Part shown: piece after piece, positions 16,721 to 38,583 of the stretch
How positions within the stretch are numbered: position 1 is the stretch's first letter
How the letters are laid out: each line of letters begins with the position of its first letter
NCBI GenBank assembly: GCA_049366795.1
Contig: JBMNCP010000026.1
Coordinates: 18,608 to 82,607 of the forward strand
DNA length: 64,000 nt
Origin: Desulfobacterales bacterium
Lineage (GTDB): Bacteria; Desulfobacterota; Desulfobacteria; Desulfobacterales; UBA5852
Reading direction: 5' to 3'
The notes under the pieces: generated by a model
Databases searched by the model: none
What the model saw: only the letters and a program-made list of their open reading frames with translations
Told to the model about the DNA's origin: nothing
Program-made: the position numbers and the translations under genes

Positions 16721-17080
16721 TCAAGCCTCACCGATCGTTTCCCTGACGATACGGATCACTTCCTCGGGTTTGAAAGGCTTGTGGAGATAGCCCACGGCGC
16801 CTCTGATCGACAGGTGCTTGGAGGGCATGGCGCTGATGATCAGAACGGGGGTGTCCTTCAGGATGTCGTCCTTTTTGAATTTCCTGAAAAACCGGGTTCC
16901 CCACTCCTTCGGCATTTCCAGGTCCAGGGTCACCATGTCCGGCCGCTCATCCCGCATCACCTCCAGTGCGTAAAACCCGTCCGTGGCCGAACAGACGTCG
17001 TAGCCGTTGTCCCGGAAGAGCAGACTCAGGAAGTTCACGACTGCCGGGTCGTCCTCGACGATCAGGATTTTCTTTCCCAT
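16721..17080 (-). CDS. single-domain response regulator (CheY-like receiver)
   Basis: 119 aa. ILIVEDD...VTLDLEMP...VLIISA...YLHKPF shows all receiver key residues. A GAGGAGG RBS precedes it. Confidence 0.9.
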   Translation of the reverse strand: MGKKILIVEDDPAVVNFLSLLFRDNGYDVCSATDGFYALEVMRDERPDMVTLDLEMPKEWGTRFFRKFKKDDILKDTPVLIISAMPSKHLSIRGAVGYLHKPFKPEEVIRIVRETIGEA

Positions 17081-18669: not shown

Positions 18670-18765
18670 CGCCTTCTCCGGTTGAAGTTCCACTGGGTCG
18701 CCCCTGAAAGCCGTCGAGATCCGACGGCCGGTCCGCACCGCGGATCACATGGCTTCCCAAAGCCG

Positions 18766-20286
18766 TCAGGTCGCCGCTTCAAATGGAATCGTGATCCGGA
18801 AGCGGCTGCCGACTCCCGGTTCGGAATTCACCTCGATGGCTCCCCCGTGCTGCTGAATGATCTTCTTGGCGATGAAAAGGCCGATGCCGGTTCCGTGGGT
18901 TCCCTTCGAGGAGAAAAAAAGCGTAAAGATATTCCTGCGCGTTTCATCGTTCATACCGATGCCGTTGTCTTCGATACGGAAGATCACGGCGCCGTCGCCG
19001 GCCTCGGCGCTGAAGGAGACGGCATGGGTTTTTTCCGAGGAGTCGCCCTGGCAGGCCTCGATCGCATTCTCGACAATGTTGACCAGCGCCGTCGAAAGCT
19101 GGTCGCGGTCGATGACGATCGAGCGCCCCCGCAGGGATGCATCGATTTCCCGACGAAAGGGAATATCCCGCTGCCGCGCCTTCGGTGCCGCCGTCGCGGC
19201 GACCTCGTCCATGAACCCATCGATCGGCGTCGCCTCCCGGTGGAGGGTTCTCTCCTTGGAGTAATACAGAATGTCGAGAATCAGGCTTCGGATCCGGTCG
19301 GCCATGACTTTCACCGTGGCCACGCCCTCGGTGACCTTCCCGGGATCTTCCCGGCTGACGCCTGAATCGATCAGATACAACCCGCCGTCGAGCCCGGTGA
19401 GAAGACCTTTGATGCCGTGCGAGACCGAGCCGATCATCAACCCCAGCGAGGCCAGTCGATCCTTGAGATCGACGATCTGGGATATGTCCATGGCCATCAG
19501 CATGACCCCGTCGATCGCCTCGTGATGCCCTTTCAAGGGAGTGGTCCAGGCAAAAAGTTCCAGTCGGTCTCCGCTCTCCGTCGTCAGTTTCAGCTCCCGT
19601 TGATGAGACTGCCCGTCGAAGAAGGTCTGCTCGGCCAGGCAGTCGATGCAAGGCTCGTCGGATCCCTTCAGCACCTCGTAACAGTACACCGGACCCCGCA
19701 TTTCGGCCGGATACGCGAAGTCGTCCTTGAAGAGGCGATTGGCGGCCTTGATGGAAAAATCGCGGTTCAAAACTGCGACGTAGCCGGGCAGCTCGTCGAA
19801 AAGATGCCGGTAGGTTTCGGTGCCGTCCTCCGTTCCGCGCGATGCATTGACCAGCCGCTCGGACTTCTCCCTGATCATATTTTCGAGGCTCTCCGTGTAG
19901 TTATGGAGCTGACGGCGGATCATGATCCGCTCATGGGCCTTCTGGAGCGCCCTGGCCAGCAGCCGTTCATCGATCGGCTTCGTGATGAAGTCGGTGGCCT
20001 CGTATTGGAGGCTCTGGATGGCCAGCTCCATGTCGCCGTGCCCGGTGATGATGATGACTTCGCTGTCCGGGTTTTCACGCTTGAGCCTCCGGAGCAATTC
20101 GATGCCATCCATGCCCGGCATCTTGATGTCGATCAGGGCGATCGGAGGCCGCTCCTTCGGGAAGACCTCCATAGCCTGTCTTCCATTCTCGGCGACGAGC
20201 ACCTCGTAACCCATGTCCCTGAGAATGATGGAGAAAACCTCCCGGATGCCCTCCTCGTCGTCGACCAGCAGGATTTTTTCTTTCAT
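18766..20286 (-). CDS. hybrid sensor: N-terminal receiver + sensory domain + histidine kinase
   Basis: MKEKILLVDDEEG...LIDIKMPGMDG is followed by the H-box GSVSHGIKGLLTG and the ATPase motifs NAIEA...DNGIGM...GTGIGL. I preferred the ATG at 20286 (GGGAGG RBS) over the TTG at 20292. Confidence 0.85.
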   Translation of the reverse strand: MKEKILLVDDEEGIREVFSIILRDMGYEVLVAENGRQAMEVFPKERPPIALIDIKMPGMDGIELLRRLKRENPDSEVIIITGHGDMELAIQSLQYEATDFITKPIDERLLARALQKAHERIMIRRQLHNYTESLENMIREKSERLVNASRGTEDGTETYRHLFDELPGYVAVLNRDFSIKAANRLFKDDFAYPAEMRGPVYCYEVLKGSDEPCIDCLAEQTFFDGQSHQRELKLTTESGDRLELFAWTTPLKGHHEAIDGVMLMAMDISQIVDLKDRLASLGLMIGSVSHGIKGLLTGLDGGLYLIDSGVSREDPGKVTEGVATVKVMADRIRSLILDILYYSKERTLHREATPIDGFMDEVAATAAPKARQRDIPFRREIDASLRGRSIVIDRDQLSTALVNIVENAIEACQGDSSEKTHAVSFSAEAGDGAVIFRIEDNGIGMNDETRRNIFTLFFSSKGTHGTGIGLFIAKKIIQQHGGAIEVNSEPGVGSRFRITIPFEAAT

Positions 20287-20347
20287 CGGCAAACCTCCCG
20301 AACCGCCGGTGGGATGAAGAGCGGTTCCACCGCACGGTGGAAGGGCC

Positions 20348-22069
20348 TCACGACACGTCGATGCCGTAGCGCTTCATTTTGCGCCACAGCGTCGACCGAT
20401 CCATGTTCAGGGCCTGGGCCGCCTGGCCTTTGTTCCACCGCATCCGGTTCAATGCGTCCAGGATCCGCTCTCTTTCCTCCCGGCTTTCCTCTTCCGGTAC
20501 AGGTGCGCAAATGTGGTGCGGCACCTTTCGCGTTTTGTTCCCGAGCAGGGTAGGCGGGAGATGCCGCTTCTCGATCACCTCCGACTGGCACAGGATCATT
20601 GCGTGCTCGATGATGTTCTCCATCTCCCTCACGTTGCCGGGGTAGTCGTGGTTCAGCAGGATCTCCATGACCTCAGCCGAAATCCGGCAGGGTCGGGTCC
20701 CTCTGGCCACGTTGAGCCTTTTGAGGATGTGCCCGACCAGCAGGGGGATGTCGCACCGGCGCTCCCTGAGCGGAGGCAGGTAGAGCCGCATGAGATTCAG
20801 ACGATAAAAAAGATCTTCCCGGAAGGTTTTGGCCTCGACCATGTCCATCAGGTTCTGGTTGGTGGCCGATATGATTCGGACATCCACCTGGGTGGTCTGA
20901 CGGCTCCCGAGCGGATAGAATTCCTTGTCTTCGATCACCCGCAGCAGCTTGGCCTGCAAGGGAAGGGGCAGGTCACCGATCTCGTCGAGGAAGAGGGTCC
21001 CTCGGTGCGCCATCTGGAAGCGGCCGGGCTTGTCACGGTCGGCGCCGGTAAATGCGCCCCTGACGTAGCCGAACATCTCCGACTCCAAAAGATTGCCCGG
21101 GATGGAGGCGCAGTTGACCTTGACCATTTTATGGTGCGACCGGGTGCTGGCATTGTGAATGATTTTCGCCAGAAGGTCCTTGCCCGTGCCGGTGGGCCCT
21201 TCGATCAGCACGGTGGCATCGCTGGCGGCGATGACCGGTGCGGCCTCGAAGATCCGCTGCATGTCGGGATGCTTGCTGACCATGTCGCAGAAGGTGTACT
21301 GCTCTTTGACGACCCGGTCGAGCTGATACTGGAGCGACAGGTCGGAAAGGGTCGTCATGCCGCCGACCACGGTACCGTCCTCGTTTCGGATGGGAAAGTA
21401 CTTCGCCCGTATGGGGATGTGATTCCCGGACTTGTCGACGATTTCGGTTTTCAGGCACTCCCTGTCTCCCTCAGTGGCGATCGCCCCTCCTCTCAAATCC
21501 TCGCAGAAGGACTTGCCAAAAACCGTTCCGCAGTTTCGGCCCAGCAGCTCGGTCCGGGAATAGCCCGTGATCGTTTCGGCCATCCGGTTGAAGAAGGCGA
21601 TATGCCCGTTGAGATCCACCGTGAACACGGCATGGTCCAGGCTGTCCAGAATATGCTTCAGCTTGAGGCCTTCGAAACGGATGCGCTGCATGAGTTCATG
21701 GAGGACCGTCTTGTCCTGGAAGACTTCGACGCAGCCGACAATACGGCCGTCCGCTCCGTAGAGAGGGCACTCGATCTTGGTGATGCTGCAGAGGCGATTG
21801 TCCTGGTCGGTGATCCGGATCTGGGATACGACGGTTTCGCGTTCGGCGTCCGGAGAGTCCAGGTACTTGCATCGTCCGCCGCAGAGATAATCCAGGAAGA
21901 TATCGTAGCAGAACCGGCCCAGGACATCGGCCTCCCTGGCGCCGGTCAGCTTTTCGGCGACGGCGTTCATGGCCATGATCTTCCGATGTTCGGACAGGAC
22001 GATCACGCCCAGGGCGAGCCGCTCGAAGATTCCCGAAATCTGATCGTATCGGATCAACGCATCCGTCAT
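20348..22069 (-). CDS. dual-PAS sigma54-dependent transcriptional activator (no receiver)
   Basis: Start at [10 protein letters not shown], overlapping the kinase stop as ATGA. It has two PAS-like regions, then [15 protein letters not shown]...GAFTGA and a C-terminal HTH ([18 protein letters not shown]). Confidence 0.9.
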
Positions 22070-24354
22070 GGCATCGGCTCCAGCGCCCGGAACCGAAGGA
22101 CGAAACAGGCGCCTCCGGACCGGCCGGGTAGTGCGTGGATGGTTCCCCCGCAATCCTTGATGATACCGTAGCTGATCGACAGTCCTAAACCGGTTCCCTT
22201 GCCGACCTCCTTGGTGGTAAAGAACGGTTCGAAGATTTTCTCCCGCAACGCCTCCGGGATCCCCGGCCCGCTGTCCTCGACCTCGACGACAACCGCCCCG
22301 TTTTTCCGACGGGAACGGAGATCGATCCATTTTTCAGCGGCATTCCCCGGAGCCTGGCCGAGCCCCCCTGCCTGAGCGTACTCCTCGATGGCATCCCTGG
22401 CGTTGATCAGAAGATTGATGAACACCTGCTCCATCCGGCTGCCGTCGGCAAGGATATCCGGAAGTTCCGGATCGAGATCACAGCGGACTTCGATGCCGCG
22501 GACCTTGAGCTGCTGGCTGAAAATTTCGAGTGCCCTGTGGAGCACCTCGTTGAGATTGATTCGCTCCTTGTCCGGACTGGACTTTCGTCCGAACTCCCGC
22601 ATGTGGTTGATGATCCGGGTGGCTCGACGGATGTGGCTGTCCGTCTGCTCGGCCAGCTTGCGAAGAATCCCCTCCTCGATGGGCTCGCCGTTTTCCAGTT
22701 TTTTCAGGAAAAAGCCGCTGGCCATCTTGATCACCGACAGGGGCTGGTTGAGTTCATGGGCGACGCCGGTGGCCATTTCACCCAGCGTGGCCATCTTGCT
22801 GGCGTGAATGAGCTGCTGCTCGACCTCGAGCCGCTTGGTGATATCGCTGGTGGTCACGAGGAGAACCCGTCGGCCTTCGGATTCAGACGGGGAGATCCGA
22901 ATATTGACGGTCAGCGTGCGGCCATCCTTGGCCACATGCCTTTCCTGATTCAGCTCGACCGAGTTGCGCAGCTTGAATGCAATCCGCTCGGCAGGTTTTT
23001 CATAGAAGAAGTCGAGGAATGATGTTTGAATTATATCATGTTTTTCGTATCCGTAAACCGCGGTGACGCTGTCGTTGCAATCGACGATTTCGAGCGTCTC
23101 CGCATCCAGCACGAAAATCGGGTTGGGAATGTTGTCGAAGATGGCCTGGTATTTTTTCTCGAACTGCCGGAGGCGTGTCTCCAGGGACTTGAGTTGGGTG
23201 AGATCCAGGTTCATCTCCATGGCCGCCACGATGCGGCCTTCGGCGTCCTTCATGGGTGAAGCAACCGCCAGCCAGTGAAGGGTGTTGCCATCCTGGTCGA
23301 TGCCCGTCTCTTCGCCGAACTGTGGGGCACCTTCCTGGAATGTCCTTTCGACCAGGCAGTTTTCGCACTTCTCGCTTCTTCCCTTGTAGGCGTGATAGCA
23401 ATAGTCGCCCTTCATGGGGTGGAACTTCTCGGCGAAGCGCCGGTTGTAGTTGAGCAGCCGGAAATCCCGGTCCTGCAGGGTGATCTCGCAGGGGACCATT
23501 TCGAAGAGGGTCTGGTATTCTTCCTTCTGGCGGCGCAGCTCCGCCTGGCTCGTCGCGATTTCCAGCCCCATCCGGTTGAACGCTATGGCCAGCTGACCGA
23601 TCTCGTCCTCGCTCCGGATGGGCACGCCGGTGCTGTAATCGCCCCTGGCCAGCCGCCGCGTTTCTCCGATCAGCCGTCGGATCGGCCGGTTGACGAATCG
23701 CAGCATGAGAACGACGATGGTGGTGGACGCGATCAGGAACATCACCAGCGCCAGGGTAATGATGCCTCTCTTGAGCACCAGAATTTCCCGGTCCGTGTTC
23801 CTGAGGGACAGGATCACATCCAGCGCGCCCAGGACCTTCTTGTCGGATGGATGCACGTGGCATACATCGGTGGCGCAGCCTGCCTGGTTCCAGATGGGCG
23901 TGATGATGCCCATGTGGCGGTCGCCTTGCGTGTCGGAAAAGATTCGCGTCCGTTTCTCGGATGCCAACTCTGAAACCGGCGGATCGAATCTGTGGCAGAC
24001 ATCGCAGGCCTCGGCCTTGATGTTCGTCGTTCGGTTGACCTCCTCGATGCGGTTGGTAAACTTTATTTCTCCGGCCTTGTTGTAGATCCGGATGGTTTCG
24101 ATCTCCTGCTGCCGGGCGATATTGTTGATGATCTCGTTGATGTCGTCCCGGGAGTTGTGCATCATGGCGAAGTGGGTGCCGAGCCGGATGGTTCTCCCCA
24201 GCCGCACCGCCTCGCCCAGCTTGTGCTCCATGAGATTTTGCTTCTGATACTCGATATTGAAGTATGCCCACACCCCGATGGTGACCATCAGGGTCAGTCC
24301 GACCCCCACGATGAGCTTCGAAACCAGGCTGTGCCGCATCAAGCGGGCTGGCAT
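22066..24354 (-). CDS. membrane sensor histidine kinase with periplasmic domain carrying haem-c type motifs, HAMP, two PAS
   Basis: 762 aa. TM1 (aa ~12-32) and TM2 (~198-218) flank a loop containing CDVCH and CATDVCH. It continues with HAMP, PAS, the H-box [11 protein letters not shown] and the ATPase motifs NARDA...DSGPGI...GTGLGLS. Confidence 0.9.
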
Positions 24355-24508: not shown

Positions 24509-25807
24509 TCAGAGCCCGACCTCCGCCAGGTCCGGCCCCAGGTATTCCCGCTCGTTTTCTCCCAGGATGCCCAGGGACAGGCAGATCAGCGTCCACAGGT
24601 GCACCGTGTGGTAAGGGGCCTCGAAGTGCTCGGCCAGATCGTGGATCTGCGAGTGGCAGTTGTGGCATGCCGCGATGCAGTAGGATGCCTCGGTGTCCAG
24701 GATCTGGCGCAGCTTTAGCTTCCCATATTCCCGCCTGGCGTCCACGTACCCCGACTGCAGGAATCCCCCCCCGCCGCCGCAGCAGTAGTTGTTCGAGCGG
24801 TTGGGGTACATCTCGACGAAATTCTCCTCGCCCACGACGGACTTGACAACGAACCTCAGGTCTTCCGCGATGGGATCGCCGTAGCTTTTCCGTACGATCT
24901 GGCAGGGATCCTGAACGGTGAACTTGATCTTCAGATCCTTGTTCCAGTCGGAATTCACCTTGAGCTTCCCCTCGCGGATCCACCTGGCGTAGTATTCGTA
25001 AATGTTGACGACGTCGAAATCGTGCTCGATACCGAATTTTTTCAGTCCGGCCCGGACTGCGTAAGTGACGTGCCCTCACTCGGTATTGAGATAGACCTTG
25101 CACCCCAGGTCATGGCATTGTTTCGCCGACAATTCGACCACGTGACGCCAGCTGTCATCGTCGGCCAGGAACATGCAGTAGTTTTCCCCGCCCCAGCCTT
25201 TGCTCCCGTATGTCCAGTCCGCCTTGACCTGTTGGAGGATCTTCCACAGGGGCACCATCTCGTCGGGTTCCGTGACGGGCTCCCGGGAGTTCTGGTTCAG
25301 GAAGAACCGGGCGCCCTTCTTGTCGATCGGCGCCTCCAGGGTTTCGAAACCCGGCTGGTTTTCCCGGACTTCCGCGAGGACGTCCTCCACCACGAACTGA
25401 AAATCCTCGGGAGAGGCGCCCATGGCGCTGCAGCTGTCGTTTCTGAGCGCCATGTCGCAGGACTCGCGGATGCCCTTCGGCCGCTCCTCCCGTGGCCAAC
25501 TGGCGCGCACCTCGTAGACGAGGGCGGGGATGTCGATCTGCATGGGGCAGACATAGACGCACCGCTGGCAGAGACTGCACATCCAGACCCACGGGGTGGC
25601 GCGAATCTCCTCCTCCAGACCGAGTGCGGCCATCCGCAGGAACTTTCGTGGATCCATGCCTTCGAGCCCCGTGGCCGGGCACCCCGAGGCGCAGGCGCCG
25701 CAGGTGAGACACAGATCGAGGTTTCCTCCGTCGGGCAGGAGGTCCCTCACCTTGGCCATCAGCGGGCTTTGCCGTTCCGCGCCGAGCTGAATCGCCGCTT
25801 CGCCCAT
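24509..25807 (-). CDS. hdrD: HdrD/DsrK-like Fe-S + CCG-domain heterodisulfide-reductase-family protein, predicted selenoprotein (UGA at 25076-25078 read as Sec)
   Basis: Track ORFs 25076-25864 and 24509-24958 are in the same frame, separated only by one TGA. Read-through gives ...KVYLNTE-U-GHVTYAVRAGLKKFGIEHDF...NSDWNKDL.... The N-terminal part has 2x[4Fe-4S] (CLTCGACASGCP, CSLCQRCVYVCP) and the C-terminal part has CCGGGGG...CHNCHSQ. I chose the start at MGEAAIQ because of an AAGGAG RBS. Confidence 0.75.
25043..25059 (-). other. candidate bacterial SECIS hairpin downstream of the hdrD UGA
   Basis: On the mRNA, UGA is followed by 16 nt and then CAGUCC-GGGCC-GGACUG, a 6-7 bp GC-rich stem with a G-rich apical loop. 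Confidence 0.5.
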
Positions 25808-25856
25808 GACACGCTCCTTTCGTCGGTTGTTCAAAGCCGGAGTCGGGCCCTTCGGA

Positions 25857-26738
25857 TTATGCACCGGCCGCCGACCTGATCTTTTGCTGAAAACCCGGAG
25901 TGACGGCCAGGTTCAGCGGTAAACCCAGTTCGGAATGGGAAAGACCGATGGCCATCCCCAACAGCTGGGGGAGATAAAGAATGGTGATTCCCAGGTCTTC
26001 ACCGTAGCGGGATGCGACCTTGTCCTGGTAGGCTTCCAGGTTCATCTGGCACATCGGACAGACCGTCACCACGGCGTCGGCTCCCCGGGCGGCCTTGAGG
26101 ATCCGGTAAACGCGCTCCAGGGCGACGGGCATCTTGGTGTTCATGTGCGATGCCCCACAGCATTTCGCCCCCTCGGACCAGGGGTGGACGGTGGCCCCTG
26201 TGGCTTCGATCAGGGGCTCCATCGACGTCGGAGATTCGGGGTGATCGAAAACCGCGTAGGGTCGCAGGCACTGGCAGCCATAGTAGGGTGCGATGGCGAG
26301 TCCGGAAAGTTCATGGTCGAGCCGCTGCCGGATGGCGTCGGCGCCGACATCCCGGGCCAGCACGTCGAGCAGATGCCGAGGTCTGGATTTCCCCTGGAGG
26401 TGTAGACCGGTCTCGGCCAGCAGGACGTTGACGCCTTCGAGCCGTTTCGGATTTCCGTAGACTTCCATTTCGACCCGTTTCAGGTTGAGGTAGCAGGCGC
26501 TGCAGGGCACCAGGACCTCCGGGTCGTCCGCCATGGTTTCGGCGATGGCGAGGTTCACGGCCGGCAGCGCATCGGTCAGCCGGTTGCTGACAGCCGATGC
26601 CGCACTGGCGCCGCAGCAGGTCCAATCCGTCAGTTCGGTGAGCTGCACGCCCATCCCGGCAAGGAAAGCCTTGGTGGACTGGTTGTACTCTCTCGCGGTG
26701 CCCGTCAGGGAGCAGCCCGGATAGTAGAGATAGTTCAT
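25857..26738 (-). CDS. hdrB: heterodisulfide reductase subunit B-like (two CCG domains)
   Basis: 293 aa from MNYLYYPGCSL, with ...TCCGAS...PCSACY... and ...YGCQC...KCCGAS...CPMCQMN. A GGAGG RBS precedes it. ATGA overlap with hdrC. Confidence 0.9.
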   Translation of the reverse strand: MNYLYYPGCSLTGTAREYNQSTKAFLAGMGVQLTELTDWTCCGASAASAVSNRLTDALPAVNLAIAETMADDPEVLVPCSACYLNLKRVEMEVYGNPKRLEGVNVLLAETGLHLQGKSRPRHLLDVLARDVGADAIRQRLDHELSGLAIAPYYGCQCLRPYAVFDHPESPTSMEPLIEATGATVHPWSEGAKCCGASHMNTKMPVALERVYRILKAARGADAVVTVCPMCQMNLEAYQDKVASRYGEDLGITILYLPQLLGMAIGLSHSELGLPLNLAVTPGFQQKIRSAAGA

Positions 26739-27331
26739 TGCCGCGCCTCCATGGTTTCGGCTTTTCGGAACATGGCTTCCAGGGATCTGTGGCCGCCCCC
26801 GCCCTCCCGCCTGTGGGGACCGAGCTTTCCCTTGCGCATCAGGCGCATGCCCATCGGAGTATACTTCAGTGGCAGCAAGGGTTTCCGGAGCATCTGGGAC
26901 CTGAAATACGCCGAGATGAACCCCATCTCGTTCACCCGCCCGTGGCGGCGGATGCTGTCCATGAAGCATCGGTAGAATGCGGTGCCTTCCTGATGCTCCG
27001 GCATGCCTTCCCGCGCCGCGATCTGCTTGAGCCTGGACATGGCGTCGGTCAGGGGCAGCCCCCGCGGGCATCGCAAGGTGCAGGTGTAGCAGGCGGAGCA
27101 CAGCATGAAGGTATGGCTGCGGAAGATGGCCTCGGTGTCGCCCATGAGGACGAGCCGCCACATGTGGCGCGGGGTCAGATCCATTGCGAATGCGTTGGGG
27201 CATGAGGCTGTACAGGTACCGCACTGCATGCAGGCGTTGACATTCTCCCGTATCGCCGTCAGGTCATCCGCGACGCGGGTCCCTGCAGGCGGAGACCCGC
27301 TGTTCGTCGTATGCGTCTCAGGGGATTTCAT
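26735..27331 (-). CDS. hdrC: heterodisulfide reductase subunit C-like (2x[4Fe-4S])
   Basis: 198 aa with CMQCGTCTASCP and CSACYTCTLRCP. An AAGGAGAA RBS precedes it. Confidence 0.9.
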   Translation of the reverse strand: MKSPETHTTNSGSPPAGTRVADDLTAIRENVNACMQCGTCTASCPNAFAMDLTPRHMWRLVLMGDTEAIFRSHTFMLCSACYTCTLRCPRGLPLTDAMSRLKQIAAREGMPEHQEGTAFYRCFMDSIRRHGRVNEMGFISAYFRSQMLRKPLLPLKYTPMGMRLMRKGKLGPHRREGGGGHRSLEAMFRKAETMEARQ

Positions 27332-27379: not shown

Positions 27380-30300
27380 TCAGCAGGCAAGAGCCGCATC
27401 GATGGTCTCCAGCATCTGTCCCGCCGGGTAGCCGTCGAGATAGGCCGCGCCGTTGGGACACACGGAGGCGCAGGCGCCGCAGCCCTGGCACATGGCGGTG
27501 TTGACCAGGATCTGCTCGTTTTCCGGATCTATGGTGCGCGCCTCGTAGGGGCACGCCTCGATGCAGCGCTCGCACAGCGCGCACAGGCTGGTGTGCACGC
27601 CGGCAACGATTCGGTCCGCGTACAAGCGGTCGCGGCAGAGAATTCGCAGACCCCGCTGCGCGGCCGCCTCGGCCGATGCGATGGATTCGGCGATCGTCCT
27701 GGGTGAAAGCGACAGTCCGCAGGCAAATACACCCTCCTTGAGGGCGTCCACCGGACGCCACTTGAATTCCGCGGCCTCGAAAAACCCGTCCCGGTCCAGG
27801 GTGGCGCCGAAGCTCTCGGCCAGGGACCGGGGCAGCTCCGGGATGACGCCGGTCGCCAGCACCACCAGATCGGCGGCGATCTCCACGTCGCGCCCCAGAA
27901 TCGGTTCGAATCCACCGACCTTGACACCGTCGCCGTCAGGCGCGACCCGCGGCTTCCGGTCGACCGTGTAGGGGATGAAGGTCACCCGGTCTTTTCTCGC
28001 CTGTGTAAAACAGGATTCAGTGAACCCATAGCTCATCATGTCCCGGTAGAAGACATAGATCGCCACCTCCGGTTTGAGTTCTCTGAGCCTCCGGATGTGC
28101 TTGAGCGTCGTCTGGCAGCAGACGCGGCTGCAATAGTTGCGGGGCTCCTCCCGGGAATCGACGCACTGGATCATGACCACGTTTCGGAGCCGCCCGCCCT
28201 CGACCTGGTTTTCATTCAGACGGCGTTCCAGCTCGCTCTGGGTGACGATCTCCGGGCTGGCGCCATATCCGTAAGAGGTGGTGGGAGCTTCCCGTCCTCC
28301 GGTCGCCAGAATGGCGACCCCGTGCTCCACCACCCGGGCGGCGCCCTGGCTGTCTTCCAGCGTCGTATGGAACCGGCCCACCTGCCCCATGGAGGTGATG
28401 ACCCGGGTCCCGGTGTTCACCTCGATGCCCGGATGCCCCTCGACCCGCGAGCGGATCTCCTCGAGCAACGGGGCAGTGGGGCGGCCTTCGAGGGTCTGCC
28501 CGATCCACAGCAGATTGCCGCCCAAGGCATCCCCGGCTTCCACCAGCTCCACCGGGTAGCCGTGATCGGCAATCGCCAGCGCCGCATGCATGCCCGCGAT
28601 TCCGCCTCCGATCACCATCGCGCGCTGGGCCACGGGGATGGCGGCCTTCGGCAGGGTCTCCACCCGCTTCAGTCTCGCGGCGGCCATCAGCAGTTCACCG
28701 GTGGCGGCGAAGGCTGCCCTCGCCGGATCTACCGCCTCCGTCGCCGCCTCGCGGGTCAGCGTCGGGGTGCGGATGTCCACGACCTCCATCAGGCGGGGAT
28801 CCAGTTGGACCTCCTTGCCGAGCGCCTTGAGTTTTCGGGCATAGACATAAGGCAGGCAGGCGCCGATCAGCAGTCGGTTCGGGTGATGTCGTTTCACTGC
28901 CTCCGTGAGCTGCCCCCAGCCTTCCGAAGTACAGAGACGCGGAAGGGTCTGCACCCGCGTGACCGCAGGATCCTGCCGCAGTCTCGCCTCCAGAACCTTC
29001 AGGTCCAGGGCGGCGGGAATCGCCCCGTCACAGCTGCAGAGAACCGCCAGCATCCGGGGGGACTCCCGGGAGACGTCCTCATAAAACGGCGTTGCCGTCG
29101 GCGTCTCCGGAACGAGGCTCCCGCCGCTGCCGTGGATCACGCGGGAAGCCTCAGCCGCCGCCGCTCCCGCCTGAATCACCGACTCGCTGATATCCTTGAG
29201 GCCTGAAAAGGCCCCGGCGACCACCACGCCCTCCCGGGCGGTGCGGGTCATCGAAAACGGCTCGGTCTCCGGGAAGCCCCAGGGATTCAGGCCGATGCCC
29301 ACCAGTTCGGCCAGTTCGGCCGATCCCGCCGCAGGCCGCTGCCCGACGGACAGCACGATCATGTCGTAATTCTCGTCCCGTGCGGCGCTGTCGTACCCTG
29401 AGAACCTGACCTGCAACTCTCCCGTCCTGCGGTCGGGAATGACGGAGTGGATCCGTCCCCGCTCCAACCGCACGCCGTCGGCTTCGGCCTCCTGCCGGTA
29501 ACGCTCGAAGGGTTTGCCGAAGGTCCGCATGTCCATGTAGTAGATGACCGTTTCGATCGGCTCCCCCGCCTTCCGGGCGCGCTCGCGGGCGATTCTGGCC
29601 TCCTTCAGTGCGAACATGCAGCAGATGCTCGAACAGAAATCCGCTCCGGACTGGAGATCGCGCGAACCCACGCACTGCACCCAGGCGATGCGCCGCGCCG
29701 GCCGCCCGTCCGAGGGCCGCTGCAACCGACCGGCAAAAGGCCCGGTGCCGCTGAGAATGCGTTCGAATTCGAGGCTGGTAACCACATCCGGAAACACCCC
29801 GTACCCGAAGGGGTTCTTGCCTTCGGACGGGTTGAAATAGTCGGTTCCTCCGGCCATCACGATGGCGCCGACTTCCAGATGCGGACCCTCCGGCGTCTTG
29901 AGCGATTCGAAAATCTGAACGATCTTTGGAATCAGCACATCGGGGTCGAAGGGCTTGATCAGATAATCCACGGCGCCGAGCTTCATGGCCTCGACGGCGG
30001 TCTCCACCGTGGCGTAGGCGGTAATCATCACCACCGGCAGTTCCGGAAAGAGGTCCTTCGCCTTTTCGAGCACCTCGACGCCGTCCATCTCCGCCATCTT
30101 GATGTCCAGGAGCATCAGGTCGATGGTGCCGGTCTTGAGCGTTTCGATCGCCTCCGGACCGGATGCCGCCATCGAGACGGAAAAGCCGCCCTCCACCGAC
30201 AGCCATTCCTTGAGGGAATCGCGGACGATCAGTTCGTCGTCGACGACGAGAATACGGAATCCCTGGCGATCGCCGTCCTCTAAACGGATGGCATCGGTCG

Positions 30301-30826
30301 GGCAGACTTTCGCACACTCCCCGCACCGGGTGCAGACGGTCGTGTCGATCCGGTAAGGATTGGGAATCGCGTGGGGAACCGGCAGATAGACGGCCTTCCG
30401 GGTCTCGAGCCCCTCGTTGAAATCGTTCGACACCTCCACCGGGCAGACCTCCACGCATCGACCGCAGCCGATGCACAGGGCCGGGTCGACAGGGTTGGGC
30501 TTCTGCTTCAAAGTGACCTGGTAGTGACCGGGCTCGCCCTCCACCGATGCCAGATCAGTGGAAAGGAGAATGTCGATGTTGTCGTGAAACAGCCCTTTTC
30601 TCAGACAGAACTGGGAGCTGCTGTCCCGGTCGACCAGGGGCAGCATTTTGCACATGCCGCAGCGGTCGGTCGGAAACTGATAGTCGAGTTGGCTGAGCAC
30701 GCCGCCCAGGTGGGGGCGGCGGTCGATCAGGGTCACCCCGTAACCGAACTCCGCAAGATCGAGGCTGGCACGAATACCGCTGATGCCCCCTCCGACCACG
30801 AGTGCCTTGCCGATCTTTCGTTGCAT
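27380..30826 (-). CDS. fused QmoA-like + HdrA-like flavo-iron-sulfur protein with an inserted CheY-type receiver domain
   Basis: 1148-aa uninterrupted ORF.
- Module 1: VVGGGISG, CIGCGRCVEVCP/CTRCGECAKVCP, ...CSSICCMFA.
- REC insert, aa ~190-306 (nt 29909-30259): FRILVVDDE...IDLMLLDIKMAEMDG...VVMITAY...YLIKPFD.
- Module 2 from aa ~590: AVLCSCDG, VIGGGIAG, CSRVCCQT, and C-terminal CALCERCIEACP/CQGCGACASVCP. Confidence 0.9.
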   Translation of the reverse strand: MQRKIGKALVVGGGISGIRASLDLAEFGYGVTLIDRRPHLGGVLSQLDYQFPTDRCGMCKMLPLVDRDSSSQFCLRKGLFHDNIDILLSTDLASVEGEPGHYQVTLKQKPNPVDPALCIGCGRCVEVCPVEVSNDFNEGLETRKAVYLPVPHAIPNPYRIDTTVCTRCGECAKVCPTDAIRLEDGDRQGFRILVVDDELIVRDSLKEWLSVEGGFSVSMAASGPEAIETLKTGTIDLMLLDIKMAEMDGVEVLEKAKDLFPELPVVMITAYATVETAVEAMKLGAVDYLIKPFDPDVLIPKIVQIFESLKTPEGPHLEVGAIVMAGGTDYFNPSEGKNPFGYGVFPDVVTSLEFERILSGTGPFAGRLQRPSDGRPARRIAWVQCVGSRDLQSGADFCSSICCMFALKEARIARERARKAGEPIETVIYYMDMRTFGKPFERYRQEAEADGVRLERGRIHSVIPDRRTGELQVRFSGYDSAARDENYDMIVLSVGQRPAAGSAELAELVGIGLNPWGFPETEPFSMTRTAREGVVVAGAFSGLKDISESVIQAGAAAAEASRVIHGSGGSLVPETPTATPFYEDVSRESPRMLAVLCSCDGAIPAALDLKVLEARLRQDPAVTRVQTLPRLCTSEGWGQLTEAVKRHHPNRLLIGACLPYVYARKLKALGKEVQLDPRLMEVVDIRTPTLTREAATEAVDPARAAFAATGELLMAAARLKRVETLPKAAIPVAQRAMVIGGGIAGMHAALAIADHGYPVELVEAGDALGGNLLWIGQTLEGRPTAPLLEEIRSRVEGHPGIEVNTGTRVITSMGQVGRFHTTLEDSQGAARVVEHGVAILATGGREAPTTSYGYGASPEIVTQSELERRLNENQVEGGRLRNVVMIQCVDSREEPRNYCSRVCCQTTLKHIRRLRELKPEVAIYVFYRDMMSYGFTESCFTQARKDRVTFIPYTVDRKPRVAPDGDGVKVGGFEPILGRDVEIAADLVVLATGVIPELPRSLAESFGATLDRDGFFEAAEFKWRPVDALKEGVFACGLSLSPRTIAESIASAEAAAQRGLRILCRDRLYADRIVAGVHTSLCALCERCIEACPYEARTIDPENEQILVNTAMCQGCGACASVCPNGAAYLDGYPAGQMLETIDAALAC

Positions 30827-30881: not shown

Positions 30882-32024
30882 TTAGTGGATGCCGACGACC
30901 TCCTGGAACTCCGCCTCGCGAAACGCCGAAAGCGGCGGGGCCTCGGCCGGATCCCGGCCGGCGAGGACATCGAAGGCCCCCTGCGTGTCGTGGGCGATCG
31001 TGCGGAACACCTCCATCACCGGGATGTCGTTCGGGCAGGCGTTGGTGCACTGGCCGCAGCCGACGCAGGCCGTGCTCATATGAGCCAGCCGGGTGAGATG
31101 GTAGAACACGGTATCCGTCGGCAGCTTGATCGCGCCCTTGCGGCGGGCCCAAGCCATGTACTGGGCGGGCTCGTGGTTGAAGACATCGGTGAGAAAGACG
31201 CATTCCTTGCAGTAGCAAACCGGGCAGGCCACCCGGCAGTTGTAACAGTTGACGCAGCCGGCGAAGTAGGTCGTCAGTTTTTCCAGGCTGTCGGTGGCGT
31301 TTCGGGTCGCCTCGAACATCCGGTCCCTTGCGGACGCCCTCTCCGTGACCAGCGATTCCACGGCGGCTTTACGCTTCACGGAAACAGGCGTTTCCGGGTA
31401 GGCAAGCCGTCCCAGGATCTCCTCGCCCTTGGGGCTGCGTCCTTCCAAAAGGATTTCGCGGTCCACATCCACCCCGATCAGCCCGATCGACAGGTCGGCC
31501 CACTCGGGCACCGGGTGTTCACAGACCTGGCATGCGGAGGCCAGGTCGACGCCGTCCATGGCCGCCCCCTTGCCCGACAGCACCTGAGCGGCGAACCGGC
31601 GGGTCGTTTCGGCCGCATCCTCACCCACGAACCGCAGATAGTCTTTGTTCTGGTAAGCCCCGAGGCAGTCCACCCCGATGACCAGCAGTTCGTCCAACCT
31701 GGCCTGCTTGAGCTTCACCAGCTCCACCAGCGCTCGAATTTCGCAAGGCCGCAGCACCACCGCCACCCGACCCCCGAAAGGCTTGCGGGATAGCTTCGAA
31801 ACGACCTTGGCCGTATTCATGGGGAACGCCGGGGCCAGCGGGTCGGCGCCTTCCAGGTCCTTCGGATCGCTGATCAGGGTCGGCATGACCATGGCCTTCA
31901 TGGGAAGCCGTCTCGGCACGAGAAGCGCGCTGACGTCCTCCATGCCCAGCAAATCGTTGAAAAACCCCTTGAGACTTGCCAGCAGATCCCCTTCCTTGAC
32001 GTCGAGTTTTACCTTGGTCGCCAT
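30882..32024 (-). CDS. FrhB/FdhB-family (F420-hydrogenase/dehydrogenase beta-like) flavo-Fe-S protein
   Basis: Start at MATKVKLDV (GGAGCGG RBS). It has CVNCYNCRVACPVCYC and CVGCGQCTNACP plus an FrhB-like N-terminal region. The family assignment is from memory. Confidence 0.65.
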   Translation of the reverse strand: MATKVKLDVKEGDLLASLKGFFNDLLGMEDVSALLVPRRLPMKAMVMPTLISDPKDLEGADPLAPAFPMNTAKVVSKLSRKPFGGRVAVVLRPCEIRALVELVKLKQARLDELLVIGVDCLGAYQNKDYLRFVGEDAAETTRRFAAQVLSGKGAAMDGVDLASACQVCEHPVPEWADLSIGLIGVDVDREILLEGRSPKGEEILGRLAYPETPVSVKRKAAVESLVTERASARDRMFEATRNATDSLEKLTTYFAGCVNCYNCRVACPVCYCKECVFLTDVFNHEPAQYMAWARRKGAIKLPTDTVFYHLTRLAHMSTACVGCGQCTNACPNDIPVMEVFRTIAHDTQGAFDVLAGRDPAEAPPLSAFREAEFQEVVGIH

Positions 32025-32098
32025 GTTTCCGCTCCATTTCGCGTGTTGTCCCGGCACCGGCGGGCCCTGGATCGGGACCGCCTCCCGGCGCCCAAATT

Positions 32099-32551: not shown

Positions 32552-35500
32552 CTAGACCCCGACCTGGGCCAGGGCGTCCATCAGTCCGTCAAATTCCGCC
32601 ATCACCTGCTTGGGCTTGAAATGGTCGATCTGCGCCGCGTCGCTGGGGCAGAATCCGGCGCAGCTGCCGCACCCCTTGCACACTGCCTGGTTCACCACCG
32701 AGACGTTGCGACGCTCGTCGAATTCGATGGCGCTGTAAGGGCACAGACCAATGCAGGTCTGGCATCCCGAACAGACATCCGGGTCGATCCAGGAGATCAC
32801 CGAAGGAACGGCGACCCTTTTCCGGACCGCCAGGGAAAGGGCCTTGGCGGCCGCCCCGGAGGCCTGGGAGACGGTGTCCGGAATGTCCTTCGGGCTCTGG
32901 CAGGCGCCGGCGAGAAAAACGCCGTCGGTCGCGGTGTTGAGAGGGCCGAGCTTGGGATGCTCCTCCAGGAAGAACCCGTCCGCCCCGATGTTCACCCCGA
33001 AGATCCGGCCGACCTCGACCGCGTCCTCCCGGGCCTGCATGGCGACGCAGAGCACCGCCATGTCCACGGGAACCCGGATGGCACGGCCGAGCAGCGTGTC
33101 CTCCGCCAGGCAGACGAGCTTGCCCTCCTCCTCCGGGAACCGCGCCTCGTCGGTGATTTCCGCCACCTTGCCCCGGATGAAGGTCGTCCCCTCCTCCTGG
33201 CATCGGCGGTAGAACTCCTCGTAACCCTCTCCGAAGCAGCGCATGTCGATGTAAAAATCGTAGACCGGCGTGTCGTGGCCGACCTTCTCCTTGATGAGGT
33301 GGGAGTACTTGAGGGCGTACATGCAGCAGACCCGGGAGCAGTATTGGTGATAGTTCACGTCCCGGCTCCCGATGCAGTGGAGCAGCGCCACGCTCCTGGG
33401 AGGCCGCGTGAAGGCGCCGTCGCCGTCCCGCATCAGGATCTGTCCGCCGGTGGGCCCGGTGGCGTTGCTCAGCCGCTCGAATTCGAGACTGGTGAACACA
33501 TTGGGATATCTGCCGTATCCGTAGGGCGCCATCGAGGTGGGGTCGAGCACGTCATAGCCTGTGGCCAGGATGATGCTGCCGACCTTGACCTCGACTTCCT
33601 CGGCCTGCATCGAATGGTCGATGGCTTTCGCCTCGCAGGCCTTGACGCACTCCATGCATTCGCAGCAGACCCCGCAGTTCAGGCATCGTTCCGCTTCGCT
33701 CAGCGCCTGCTCCGCGGTGAGCCCCTTCGATTCCTCCTCGAAGGAGCCGACCCGCAGGCTCCAGTCCAAGTGGGTGAGGTGCTCCCGCTTCCGGGGCGCG
33801 CATTCCACAGGGATATCGGCCCACTGGCAGGCGTCTTCCACCGCCTCGGCCGGCTCGGCGATCGGGGCTTCCTTCCGGGGTCCAGATGCCGCTGCATCAG
33901 ACGCCACGCCCGTCTCCAGGAACGCGATGATCCCCTCCGCCGCGCGATGCGCCGCGGCCACGGCTTCCACCACGGTGGCCGGACCGCTCACCGCGTCGCC
34001 CGCGGCGAAAACATGGGGGATCGTCGTCTGCAGGGTGACCGGGTCCGCAACGATCAGGTTCCTGCGGCTGCACTCCAGACGACAGGCATCGTCCACCCAT
34101 GACAAGTCCACCCGCTGACCGATGGCGGGGATGACGGCGTCGCAGTCGACCACGAATTCGGAACCAGCAATCGGCTCGGGCCGCCGGCGGCCGCTTTCAT
34201 CCGGCGCCCCCAGGCGGGTTTCGATACACCGGAGGCCGGTGACGCACCCGTTCTCGGAAAGAATTTCGAGCGGCGCCGCCATGAAGCGGAATTGGACGCC
34301 TTCCTCCCGGGCGCCCTGGATCTCATCGCCAAAGGCAGGCATCTCCGCCTCCGACCGTCGGTAGACCACCGTCACGGATTCCGCTCCGAGACGCCGGGCC
34401 ACCCGAACGGCGTCGATCGCCACGTTGCCGCCGCCGACTACGGCGACGCGGCGCCCCGGACACTCCCGCCCGGCGAGATTGCAGTCCCGCAGGAAGCAGA
34501 TGGCGTCCAGGACCCCCTTCGTTCCGGTCTCGCCCGGGATGCCGAGCCGGGTGCACTCGTGGGCTCCGACCCCCACAAACACGGCGGAAAATCCCTCTTT
34601 TTCGAGATCCGCCAACGTCATGTCTGTGCCGAACCGGACTCCGGTCCGGACATCCACGCCGGTCCGGAGAATGTAGTTGATCTCCCTGTCCAGCACCTCC
34701 GGGGGCAGCCGGTAGTCAGGGATGCCGACCCGCAGCATGCCCCCGAGCTGGTCGAGCGCCTCGAAAAGCGTCACCTGGAAGCCGGCTTTCCGAAGGTCGA
34801 AGGCGGCCGTCAAACCGGCCGGTCCGGAGCCGATCACCGCCACCCTCTCCTCCCGCTCCTCCTTTATTTCCGGCAGGGGAAGCGATTCGAAGTCCACCTG
34901 ATCGGCCGCATACCGCTTCAGGTCGCGGATGGCGATCGCTTCGTCGACTTCCTGACGCCGGCACTCGGTCTCGCAGGGATGAGGGCACACGCGGCCCAGC
35001 ACGCCCGGCAGCGGAATCTTCTCCATGATCAGCCGGACCGCCTCTTCGTACTTGCCCACCTTGATGAGCTGGACGTAGCCCTGAACGTTGACGTGGGCCG
35101 GGCACGCCTGCACGCAGGGAGCCCGATCCTTCTTGTCGATGCAGTAGGTAATGGGAACGGCCTGGGGAAAGGCGCGGTAGATCGCATTCCGGGTGCCCAT
35201 CCCGACGTCCCATTCACTCGGAACCGTCACAGGGCAGGCCTTGGCGCACTCGCCGCAGCCGGTGCAGTTCGCCAGCACGTAGCGGGGGTTTTTCCGGATT
35301 CGCACCGTGTAGTTGCCGATATATCCGGACACCTCCTGGACTTCGCTGTAGGACAGCAGATCGATGTTCGGGTTCTGGGCCACGTCCACCATCTTGGGGG
35401 TGCCGATGCAGGCCGCGCAGTCCAGGGTGGGAAAGGTCTTGTCGAACTGAAGCATGTGCCCGCCGATCGTAGTGGACTTCTCCACCAGATAGGTCTTGTG

Positions 35501-35992
35501 TCCGCTATTGCCGATATCCAGGGCCGCCTGCATGCCCGCGATGCCGCCTCCGACCACCATGATGTCCGGATGGACCTCGACTTCCCGTGCATCGAGGCTC
35601 CGGTGGTAGTTCACACGATTGACGGCGGCGGCGGCCAGGGTCTTGGCCTTCCGGGTGGCTTCGTCCTCGTCCAGAGTGACCCAGGACACCTGCTCGCGAA
35701 CGGAAGCCATCTGGAATAGATAGGGATTGATCCCGGCTCTCTGGCAGGCCCCCTGGAAGGTCTTTTCATGAAGCCGCGGGGAGCAGGAGGCGACCACCAC
35801 GCGGTTGAGACCGTAGGAGGCGATATCCTTTTCGATCATCTCCTGGCCGGGGTCGGAGCACATGAACTTGTAGTCTCGCGAAACCACGACATTGGGAAGA
35901 TGCCGGACAAACTCCGCCACCTCCTCGACCCTGACCTTGTACGCGATGTTGATGCCACAGTGGCAAATGTAGAACCCGATCTTTTTCTCCAT
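32552..35992 (-). CDS. hdrL: large HdrA paralogue (HdrL-type): HdrA fused with a GltD/NfnB-like NAD(P)H-binding module
   Basis: 1146 aa.
- IGFYICHCGINIAYKV (HdrA N-terminal domain), VVGGGIAGM, FPTLDCAAC.
- An inserted CPAHVNVQGY...VAVIGSGPAGLTAA...GGMLRVGIPDYRLP...VVGGGNVAIDAVR, which is the small-subunit glutamate-synthase-like fold.
- It then resumes CSRVCCMYA and ends with 2x[4Fe-4S]. Confidence 0.85.
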   Translation of the reverse strand: MEKKIGFYICHCGINIAYKVRVEEVAEFVRHLPNVVVSRDYKFMCSDPGQEMIEKDIASYGLNRVVVASCSPRLHEKTFQGACQRAGINPYLFQMASVREQVSWVTLDEDEATRKAKTLAAAAVNRVNYHRSLDAREVEVHPDIMVVGGGIAGMQAALDIGNSGHKTYLVEKSTTIGGHMLQFDKTFPTLDCAACIGTPKMVDVAQNPNIDLLSYSEVQEVSGYIGNYTVRIRKNPRYVLANCTGCGECAKACPVTVPSEWDVGMGTRNAIYRAFPQAVPITYCIDKKDRAPCVQACPAHVNVQGYVQLIKVGKYEEAVRLIMEKIPLPGVLGRVCPHPCETECRRQEVDEAIAIRDLKRYAADQVDFESLPLPEIKEEREERVAVIGSGPAGLTAAFDLRKAGFQVTLFEALDQLGGMLRVGIPDYRLPPEVLDREINYILRTGVDVRTGVRFGTDMTLADLEKEGFSAVFVGVGAHECTRLGIPGETGTKGVLDAICFLRDCNLAGRECPGRRVAVVGGGNVAIDAVRVARRLGAESVTVVYRRSEAEMPAFGDEIQGAREEGVQFRFMAAPLEILSENGCVTGLRCIETRLGAPDESGRRRPEPIAGSEFVVDCDAVIPAIGQRVDLSWVDDACRLECSRRNLIVADPVTLQTTIPHVFAAGDAVSGPATVVEAVAAAHRAAEGIIAFLETGVASDAAASGPRKEAPIAEPAEAVEDACQWADIPVECAPRKREHLTHLDWSLRVGSFEEESKGLTAEQALSEAERCLNCGVCCECMECVKACEAKAIDHSMQAEEVEVKVGSIILATGYDVLDPTSMAPYGYGRYPNVFTSLEFERLSNATGPTGGQILMRDGDGAFTRPPRSVALLHCIGSRDVNYHQYCSRVCCMYALKYSHLIKEKVGHDTPVYDFYIDMRCFGEGYEEFYRRCQEEGTTFIRGKVAEITDEARFPEEEGKLVCLAEDTLLGRAIRVPVDMAVLCVAMQAREDAVEVGRIFGVNIGADGFFLEEHPKLGPLNTATDGVFLAGACQSPKDIPDTVSQASGAAAKALSLAVRKRVAVPSVISWIDPDVCSGCQTCIGLCPYSAIEFDERRNVSVVNQAVCKGCGSCAGFCPSDAAQIDHFKPKQVMAEFDGLMDALAQVGV

Positions 35993-37512: not shown

Positions 37513-37548
37513 TTTATTCTCCTTTATTCTCCTGTGGTGGAACGGACA

Positions 37549-37923: not shown

Positions 37924-38168
37924 TGCAATTCTCCCTCTTGAAAGCCCTTCCGTCCTTCGGGCACCATTTCGCAGCGAGGATGAAGCGTGGTTCTCCGCCT
38001 CCGGACACGGTGATGCGATCCGCGTTGCCGTCCGACTCGCAGCGAGACCCGGCCGCCGCGACGGCATAGCCCTAGAAGGTATCGGAACCACCGCCCACTC
38101 AGGCCGCTGATTCTTACCTGGCGCTCCATGAGCTCCGCTTTCTGATCCGGGAGGCGAATTCGATCACA

Positions 38169-38513: not shown

Positions 38514-38583
38514 CGTCGCTCTCCTTGTCTCCAGAAATTGAAGGAACACTTCACGGTCAGGGCGGAAGCGCTTCCCTGCTCCG

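Follow-up and report, generated by a model that had tools for sequence, protein, structure and literature searches.

We report that an in-frame TGA codon in a gene of a Desulfobacterales bacterium, encoding an iron-sulfur protein related to the heterodisulfide reductase subunit HdrD, is most probably read as selenocysteine (Sec). The gene lies on the minus strand of a 64,000-nucleotide stretch of DNA (assembly GCA_049366795.1, contig JBMNCP010000026.1, positions 18,608 to 82,607 of the forward strand), which is called the window below and in whose coordinates all positions are given. We are highly confident that the TGA at 25078-25076 is a Sec codon within one gene of 432 codons, and not a stop. 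The first-pass annotation, made from the DNA letters without database searches, had predicted Sec at this site together with a selenocysteine insertion sequence (SECIS), and this prediction is supported by the presence of Cys at the aligned position of homologues, by the conservation of the TGA itself, by a covarying hairpin that is linked to the TGA, and by the agreement of this hairpin with the consensus of bacterial SECIS elements (bSECIS).

Translation of the minus strand from 25864 to 24509 in one frame yields a single internal stop, preceded by GCKVYLNTE and followed by GHVTYAVRAGLKKFG. Two open reading frames (ORFs) of 262 and 149 amino acids had been described as sharing one frame and being split by a single TGA, which this translation confirms: the first (25076..25864, minus strand) terminates with the TGA at 25078-25076, and the second (24509..24958, minus strand) continues in the same frame, the next possible start codon of that frame (ATG, GTG or TTG, as defined in the ORF list) lying 39 codons downstream of the TGA. 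The read-through context given at first pass, YLNTE-U-GHVTYAV, was also found, as KVYLNTE-stop-GHVTYAVRAG. Because both the homologues and the 243-amino-acid database fragments described below begin at the ATG at 25807 (MGEAA), the start was set at this codon, which is likely to be the true one. The resulting features are as follows:

24509..25807, minus strand: predicted selenoprotein gene of 432 sense codons, with ATG at 25807-25805, the Sec UGA as codon 244 and the stop TGA at 24511-24509
25814..25819, minus strand: Shine-Dalgarno-like AAGGAG, 6 nucleotides (nt) upstream of the ATG, as read from the sequence
25076..25078, minus strand: in-frame UGA, predicted Sec codon (U244 in T-E-U-G-H), Cys in homologues and TGA in relatives
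25060..25075, minus strand: spacer of 16 nt that separates the hairpin from the UGA, encoding G-H-V-T-Y and the first base of an Ala codon
25043..25059, minus strand: hairpin predicted to be the core of a bacterial SECIS; its stem CAGUCCG/CGGACUG carries the apical loop GGC, beginning 23 nt after the UGA

The terminal stop at 24511-24509 is likewise a UGA, and thus the same codon stands for Sec at position 244 and for termination at position 433, with a hairpin only after the first of the two.

A search with the read-through protein returned 2659 homologues, and the column aligned with the UGA was checked in the best 120 of them, all of full length (412-532 amino acids, 58-75% identity). The prediction that Cys-containing homologues would carry Cys in this column, in the E-C-G-H context named for relatives, proved right for 120 out of 120 proteins, each with the context [ST]ECGH. 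When the N-terminal part alone served as the query, 112 of the best 120 cluster representatives (73-91% identity) were exactly 243 amino acids long and all 120 ended in LN[TS]E; gene callers have therefore truncated them at the same codon. The splitting of this gene by automated annotation, which had been anticipated, is thus already visible in these fragments.

Two sets of loci were compared at the nucleotide level, namely the 80 closest genome loci, each from the genome of a distinct GTDB species (the nearest being 84% identical), and 80 metagenome loci fetched with a Cys-type paralogue as the query. The codon in question is TGA in 79 of the 80 genome loci and TGT in the remaining one, while the metagenome set contains 48 TGA, 30 TGC and 2 TGT codons; pooled, 127 of the 160 loci are TGA-type and 33 are Cys-type. 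The TGA-type loci include one (L065) from the complete genome of a cultured bacterium, Desulfonema magnum 4be13. According to tblastn, identity amounts to 70-83% upstream of the TGA and 73-86% downstream of it, and the similarity restarts at the very next codon. In a neighbour-joining tree of the 160 sequences, all but one of the 33 Cys-type genes fall into a single clade, and only 2 Sec/Cys changes are required. Taking together the full-length Cys homologues, the TGA at the same codon, the resumed similarity and the tree, neither a nonsense mutation, nor a sequencing error, nor a split gene can explain the observed pattern.

The remaining Cys-type gene (L012, with TGT) sits among the Sec-type genes as a sister to L007 and L008, with an unchanged gene context, and looks like a recent replacement of Sec by Cys. 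Its hairpin (L012:8730-8790) has decayed (GUCUGGAAAGGCUUA), and Trp occurs in place of Arg/Leu two codons into the former stem. We also observed both Sec-type and Cys-type paralogues, or two Sec-type copies in differing gene contexts, within single genomes or metagenome-assembled genomes (MAGs): L065 of D. magnum occurs with P0010, P0001 with P0161 (Ca. Magnetomoraceae gMMP-15), and further pairs are L020/L025, L021/L063, L023/L074 and L032/L075. Such combinations are reminiscent of Sec/Cys back-up pairs. A literature search on selenoproteins of D. magnum found nothing relevant. Another locus, L018 (contig JAIWDV010000013.1), carries a Sec-type gene that is typical of this desulfobacterial family, yet was binned in a MAG labelled Bacteroidales, which is probably a binning error.

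In the mRNA the UGA is followed by the 16-nt spacer GGGCACGUCACUUACG and then, at 25059-25043, by CAGUCCGGGCCGGACUG, which ViennaRNA folds into a hairpin of -10.4 kcal/mol. A hairpin had been proposed here at first pass, and its coordinates and its start 17 nt after the UGA were exact, but the proposed structure (stem CAGUCC/GGACUG, loop GGGCC) can be refined, since both the folding and the comparison with relatives support a seventh G-C pair, which extends the GC-rich stem to 7 base pairs (bp) and leaves a 3-nt GGC loop.

The hairpin region of the window was aligned, without gaps, with those of the 79 TGA-type genome loci (80 sequences, 77 of them distinct). In most relatives the helix comprises 8 bp and a 3-nt loop, as a flanking U-A or G-C also pairs; in the window this basal pair is a G.A mismatch and the helix has 7 bp. 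Standard pairing was found in 97.2% of the pair cells of the 80 sequences, compared with only 20-43% when the register was slid by 1-3 columns. Compensatory changes occur at 3 of the 8 pairs (exchanges between U-A and G-C in 24 sequences for the loop-closing pair and in 10 for the basal one, besides one A-U exchange), and the observed covariation score was reached by none of 500 shuffles. Among the 77 distinct sequences, the loop is closed by U-A in 49, by G-C in 23, by U-G in 4 and by G-U in 1; at the base of the helix, 52 have U-A and 10 have G-C. Elsewhere, one A-U has switched to U-A. The identical helix was recovered independently by RNAalifold.

Within the stem, third codon positions show little or no variation (GTC, CNG, GGA, CTG), while those of the spacer vary freely. 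Covariation of the closing pair ties the replacement of Arg CGG by Leu CUG to a synonymous change of GCC to GCA two codons later. An amino-acid change is thereby linked with a synonymous one, and the RNA structure therefore shapes the sequence of the protein.

The hairpin is a property of the TGA-type genes. The 127 TGA-type loci form on average 7.6-7.8 of the 8 pairs (-11.3 kcal/mol), whereas 32 Cys-type loci examined in the same register form a mean of 4.0, i.e. the chance level (-6.1 kcal/mol). The length of the spacer between the UGA and the hairpin is constant in all 127 TGA-type loci, the alignment being without indels. In the loop, column 30 is an invariant G, and column 31 holds G in 90% of sequences or more and U in the others.

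According to the published consensus, a bSECIS has an apical loop of 3-9 nt, an upper stem of 4-16 bp, a distance of 16-37 nt from the UGA to the loop and a minimum free energy of at most -7.5 kcal/mol, and it requires G in the first two loop positions, following the pattern N1-G-[G/U]-N-N2 (PMC13188914). The window hairpin agrees with all four published criteria (3-nt loop on a 7-bp stem, loop G-G, 23 nt, -10.4 kcal/mol). It resembles the elements of the bSECISearch model and the fdhF-type SECIS of Escherichia coli in being a coding-region stem-loop placed just after the UGA, with a small loop that starts with G-G, and differs in that it is a short perfect helix with no sequence likeness to Rfam-curated elements. 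The E. coli fdhF-type element carries a bulged U, which is absent from the window helix. By analogy with the established bacterial mechanism, the hairpin located 16 nt downstream of the UGA (25059-25043) would act as a bacterial SECIS: with the ribosome at the UGA, the complex SelB-GTP-Sec-tRNA(Sec) would bind the hairpin, and Sec would be inserted instead of termination taking place.

The predicted product is a soluble subunit of the HdrD/DsrK type. It comprises two [4Fe-4S] motifs, a CCG-like domain in the N-terminal half that has become degenerate, and a single complete CCG domain towards the C-terminus (the CCG motif being defined as in PMC10861901). The last of these is the predicted site of a single noncubane [4Fe-4S] cluster. 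The corresponding features are:

25532..25720, minus strand: two ferredoxin-type [4Fe-4S] motifs, HdrC-like, C33xxC36xxC39xxxC43P and C77xxC80xxC83xxxC87P (Pfam Fer4_8/Fer4_17/Fer4_9)
25175..25177, minus strand: codon of the invariant Cys211 (invariant column), second surviving Cys of the degenerate N-terminal CCG-like domain
24644..24919, minus strand: complete CCG domain, C302-X39-C342C343G-X37-C381xxC384 (Pfam PF02754, E = 2.6e-11, residues 297-388)

The ferredoxin-type dicluster region spans residues 30-92 (Pfam Fer4_8/Fer4_17). The Cys residues of both ferredoxin motifs and of the complete CCG motif are invariant across the family, and Cys236 is nearly invariant in the family alignment; in residues 150-292 Pfam detected no CCG domain, even at E <= 10. 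A phmmer search against PDB sequences matched essentially HdrC chains only, and no DsrK, HmcF or TmcB structure was found among the solved-structure matches, while the C-terminal CCG domain aligns to its counterpart in HdrB structures. The best NCBIfam matches, all of them partial, are HmcF, TmcB and DsrK (in descending order 157, 146 and 115 bits, against equivalog cut-offs of 750, 735 and 400), and the GlpC-type matches are weak (PRK11168, E = 4e-8). Since these scores are far under the cut-offs and the neighbouring genes encode proteins of the soluble Hdr type, we consider the protein a relative, and not an orthologue, of HmcF, TmcB and DsrK. With these proteins, which are the catalytic subunits of membrane complexes in sulfate reducers, it shares two [4Fe-4S] motifs, one complete CCG domain and the T/GECGH motif (PMC10861901). 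It differs from them in having Sec where they have Cys, and in that no membrane partner of the DsrM/HmcE/TmcC type adjoins its gene, whose neighbours code for HdrB-, HdrC- and HdrA-like proteins and a kinase.

An AlphaFold2 model, without cofactors, was made of a Cys homologue with 75% identity (P0001; pLDDT 86, pTM 0.87). Foldseek matched it best to the EtfD of mycobacteria and to entire HdrB chains (TM 0.60-0.66, normalised to HdrB). As whole HdrB chains are matched, the region preceding the complete CCG domain appears to fold as a second, degenerate CCG-like domain. Residue 244 of the model follows the strand 238-241 and lies at the N-terminus of the helix 245-257, which would place it topologically where the complete CCG domain has Cys381, the first Cys of its CX2C. 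Cys211 is found in a short helix (210-213) that comes after the strand 198-200, a topology resembling that of the CC in the complete CCG motif. An assignment of C211-X31-E-U-G to the C-Xn-CCG part of the motif was also considered and dropped, because the order of secondary structures in the AlphaFold2 model puts residue 244 at the first Cys of the CX2C.

The methanogen proteins HdrB/HdrD (5ODC) thus have, judging from the P0001 model, the same fold over both CCG-type domains, and they share the C-terminal CCG motif. They carry two noncubane clusters, whereas the window protein has only one CCG stretch, its N-terminal site having lost at least 3 of the 5 Cys residues, and contains a single Sec where a cluster ligand was. 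Because of this loss, the homolytic mechanism that employs two clusters cannot apply to it.

DsrK contains a single CCG motif; of the noncubane site that it lacks, one Cys has stayed strictly conserved, within GECGH (Barbosa et al., PNAS 2024, PMC10861901). The same Cys occurs in the T/GECGH of HmcF and TmcB, and was proposed to be catalytic in disulfide/trisulfide reduction and possibly to bind the cluster (PMC10861901); selenium is not mentioned in that paper. In the window protein, Sec244 occupies the Cys position of the T-E-C-G-H motif. Judged from the sequence, it is the surviving residue of a lost, second noncubane-cluster site.

We infer that Sec244 would face the single noncubane [4Fe-4S] cluster and act as a redox-active nucleophile. 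It would attack a disulfide or trisulfide substrate, forming an Se-S intermediate or binding the cluster, and the cluster would resolve the intermediate by two one-electron steps. Electrons would reach the site through the two cubane clusters, and their source would be the co-encoded module of NAD(P)H-oxidoreductase, FrhB-like protein, HdrA with a receiver domain (REC), HdrC and HdrB. The model topology makes Cys211 a possible redox partner of Sec244. Some points speak against assigning this role. The catalytic function of residue 244 has been derived from a published proposal and from the topology of a model lacking cofactors, and the association with HdrABC, as well as the substrate class, from gene order only. 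Moreover, hhalign against the HdrB encoded in the window aligned only the C-terminal CCG domain, and a local profile alignment to HdrB gave an unreliable alignment of the N-terminal part.

Sec244 might instead be inserted as an Fe-S ligand and not as a nucleophile, either through an Se-Fe bond to the noncubane cluster or, together with Cys211 and Cys236, in a residual N-terminal cluster; we think this unlikely, though it deserves serious consideration. An 'open'-cluster signal is seen by electron paramagnetic resonance in as-isolated DsrK and TmcB, whose conserved Cys may bind the cluster (PMC10861901), and Sec ligates metals in other selenoenzymes (PMC13188914); the conservation of Cys211 and Cys236 points the same way. 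However, of the 5 ligands that make up a CCG site just 2-3 are left, and Pfam detects no CCG domain in the N-terminal half even at E <= 10. Besides, the two roles are not mutually exclusive, as binding to the cluster may be one step of catalysis.

Two further readings go beyond the membership of a catalogued family, and they seem rather improbable to us. In the first, Sec244 may ligate or open the single noncubane cluster via an Se-Fe bond, and so assume the role of the lost cluster; if true, this would constitute a selenium-dependent variant of heterodisulfide-reductase chemistry, and the natural Sec/Cys pairs would be evidence that the T/GECGH Cys of DsrK, HmcF and TmcB is catalytic. In the second, the histidine kinase encoded next to the selenoprotein gene may switch the flow of electrons through an Hdr-type, possibly bifurcating, complex via the receiver domain of HdrA.

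A natural Sec/Cys exchange usually marks a redox-active residue. Therefore the clade described here lends independent support to the proposal that the T/GECGH Cys is catalytic, and its Sec-type and Cys-type paralogues, sometimes present in one genome, are convenient natural variants for testing it. This coincidence of Sec with a Cys recently proposed to be catalytic is the only, and modestly, new point of our analysis. General knowledge on selenoproteins is unchanged by the finding.

As regards the decoding of the UGA, several observations weigh against Sec. The fold of the single sequence is unexceptional (z = -0.8 in a 43-nt context and z = -2.7 for the 21-nt hairpin, in a region of 62% GC), so the hairpin is not statistically striking alone and its significance comes from the comparison with relatives. 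Rfam yielded no SECIS-type match, either in the whole window at the gathering threshold or in 24900-25200 at E <= 10; it may be added that many bacterial SECIS elements share no sequence resemblance (PMC13188914). The 64-kb window contains no selA, selB, selC or selD, no tRNA was found there, and a scan of it for TGA-interrupted genes with a high GC content at third codon positions on both sides identified no other credible Sec gene; Sec machinery has been reported in related Desulfobacterales (PMC2702500). Contigs from RNA-labelled libraries match no more than parts of the gene, at 99-100% identity, and none of high identity extends across the UGA. Public read sets contain at most 30% of the sampled 31-letter words, and represent related strains only; neither source is informative about the decoding.

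That the TGA is nevertheless a true stop, which either separates two proteins (a 243-amino-acid ferredoxin-like one and a CCG-domain one) or marks a pseudogene created by a nonsense mutation or a sequencing error, appears to us very improbable. Pipelines do annotate it in this way, the 243-amino-acid 'ferredoxin' or 'HdrC' fragments dominate the database, and Sec machinery was not seen within the window; decoding of Sec is, furthermore, never fully efficient, and a truncated product is therefore likely anyway. However, a TGA shared at this codon by 127 loci whose identity falls to ~70% is neither an error nor a recent nonsense mutation, the 39 codons after it lack an in-frame start yet are conserved as protein, full-length homologues have Cys at this place, and the hairpin linked to the TGA covaries.

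Equally hard to credit is read-through without selenium, whereby a near-cognate or suppressor tRNA would add Trp or Cys, or tRNA(Sec) would be loaded with Cys, and the hairpin would merely slow the ribosome, even though Cys-type orthologues are functional, so that a Cys product would probably work, and misincorporation of Cys at Sec codons under selenium limitation is known elsewhere. This explanation is opposed by the match of the hairpin to the SelB-type consensus, with its conserved G-G/U loop start and fixed distance, by the description of Desulfobacterales and their relatives as rich in selenoproteins and equipped with complete sel genes (PMC2702500, PMC1794560 and the Olavius symbiont study), and by the long retention of TGA over TGC/TGT in one large clade, which indicates a selective benefit of Sec.

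Sec decoding of this gene also agrees with what is known of related bacteria. 'Fe-S oxidoreductase (GlpC)' was listed as a deltaproteobacterial selenoprotein family by Zhang et al. (2006, PMC1794560), and it appears again in the Olavius symbiont study; one of our loci (L055) belongs to a symbiont of this kind. In a 2026 review, the motif of this Fe-S oxidoreductase-like (GlpC) family is stated to be 'UGH' (PMC13188914); a published example of the family is WP_174406253.1. The window protein conforms to this motif and to the one-Sec-per-protein criterion of the family, with T-E-U-G-H and a single internal TGA. Further features in common are the architecture of the Fe-S/CCG type, one Sec followed by G-H, the existence of Cys homologues and the linkage to hdrA in sulfate reducers and syntrophs. 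The published operons, compared here by motif and description, differ in their order glpC-hdrA-frhD-frhG-frhA and in their location beside hydrogenase genes; in the window the context is NAD(P)H-oxidoreductase/FrhB-like/HdrA(REC)/HdrC/HdrB, accompanied by genes for a kinase and a sigma-54 activator. Since the family has been catalogued since at least 2006, the window gene is an added member of a known selenoprotein family.

Desulfobacterium autotrophicum HRM2 possesses five HdrD proteins (HdrD1-5), of which HdrD4 is a selenoprotein, and its locus VIII combines hdrL/hdrA4 with hdrB, hdrC and hdrD2 (PMC2702500). The statement made at first pass that Hdr-related and other Fe-S oxidoreductase selenoproteins are frequent in deltaproteobacteria is thus in line with the literature, which lists both the GlpC-like UGH family and the Sec-containing HdrD4. 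As in the window, the HdrD proteins of D. autotrophicum are soluble HdrC-like/HdrB-like fusions without membrane segments, with Sec in one paralogue and Cys in the others, and locus VIII brings together HdrL, an FdhB-like gene, HdrA, HdrC/B and HdrD. In contrast to the window, hdrD2 of this locus is not listed as a selenoprotein; a receiver domain of HdrA is not mentioned, and the position of Sec in HdrD4 is not stated (PMC2702500).

For annotation, it follows that the gene should stand as one selenoprotein of 432 amino acids. Clusters of its relatives number well over a hundred in public databases, where they stand as 243-amino-acid 'ferredoxin' or 'HdrC' fragments.

The selenoprotein gene is the last redox gene of a co-directional cluster, and is followed by genes for a sensor kinase and a sigma-54 activator. 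In the order of transcription, its neighbours are:

32552..35992, minus strand: first gene of the cluster, 'HdrL'-like, for a large NAD(P)H/FAD oxidoreductase containing GltD-like and ferredoxin domains (Pfam Pyr_redox_2, Fer4_20, Fer4)
30882..32057, minus strand: FrhB/FdhB-like Fe-S flavoprotein gene (Pfam FrhB_FdhB_C and Fer4; syntenic in 21 loci)
27380..30826, minus strand: HdrA-like flavoprotein of 1148 amino acids with an inserted receiver domain (NCBIfam HdrA2-like partial matches)
26735..27331, minus strand: HdrC-like gene (Pfam/NCBIfam matches, synteny)
25857..26702, minus strand: HdrB-like gene, directly upstream of the selenoprotein gene (Pfam CCG, two complete motifs; NCBIfam HdrB/SdhE-like, partial; syntenic in 15 loci)
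22066..24354, minus strand: gene for a sensor histidine kinase, which follows the selenoprotein gene directly (sequence motifs, and synteny in the closest loci)
20348-22330, minus strand: sigma-54 activator gene, after the sensor kinase (ORF translation)

The closest loci (L001-L006, L009 and L011) keep the same gene order, while in others (e.g. L008, L010, L013, L042, L060 and L066) the selenoprotein gene is placed between the FrhB-like and HdrA genes. The HdrL-like gene has syntenic matches at 61-84% identity in about 23 of the 80 loci, and its domain make-up is as described for HdrL of D. autotrophicum (PMC2702500).

The HdrA-like protein contains a response-regulator receiver domain at residues 192-301 (Pfam Response_reg, E = 3e-29), in which the acidic pocket, the phospho-acceptor Asp, the Thr and the Lys are all intact. 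At least 17 syntenic loci (L001-L004, L006, L008-L010, L013, L031, L033, L037, L042, L060, L061, L066 and L072) have kept this insertion, at 61-77% identity. A literature search found no paper that pairs HdrA with a receiver domain. The domain may provide phospho-control of an Hdr-type redox complex.

Beyond the sigma-54 activator gene there are two more hybrid receiver/histidine-kinase genes (17062-18738 and 18766-20292, both on the minus strand), one of them with PAS domains, and the signalling block adjoining the Hdr cluster is thus unusually dense. Elsewhere in the window we noted a gene run on the minus strand (36853-41939) that encodes a DUF1638 protein, three P-loop proteins of the CbiA/ParA type (4Fe-4S ferredoxin motifs occur in two of these) and a protein with a dinitrogenase FeMo-cofactor-binding domain. 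A full-length cobalamin riboswitch is located at 4970-5159 on the minus strand (Rfam RF00174, 106.5 bits).

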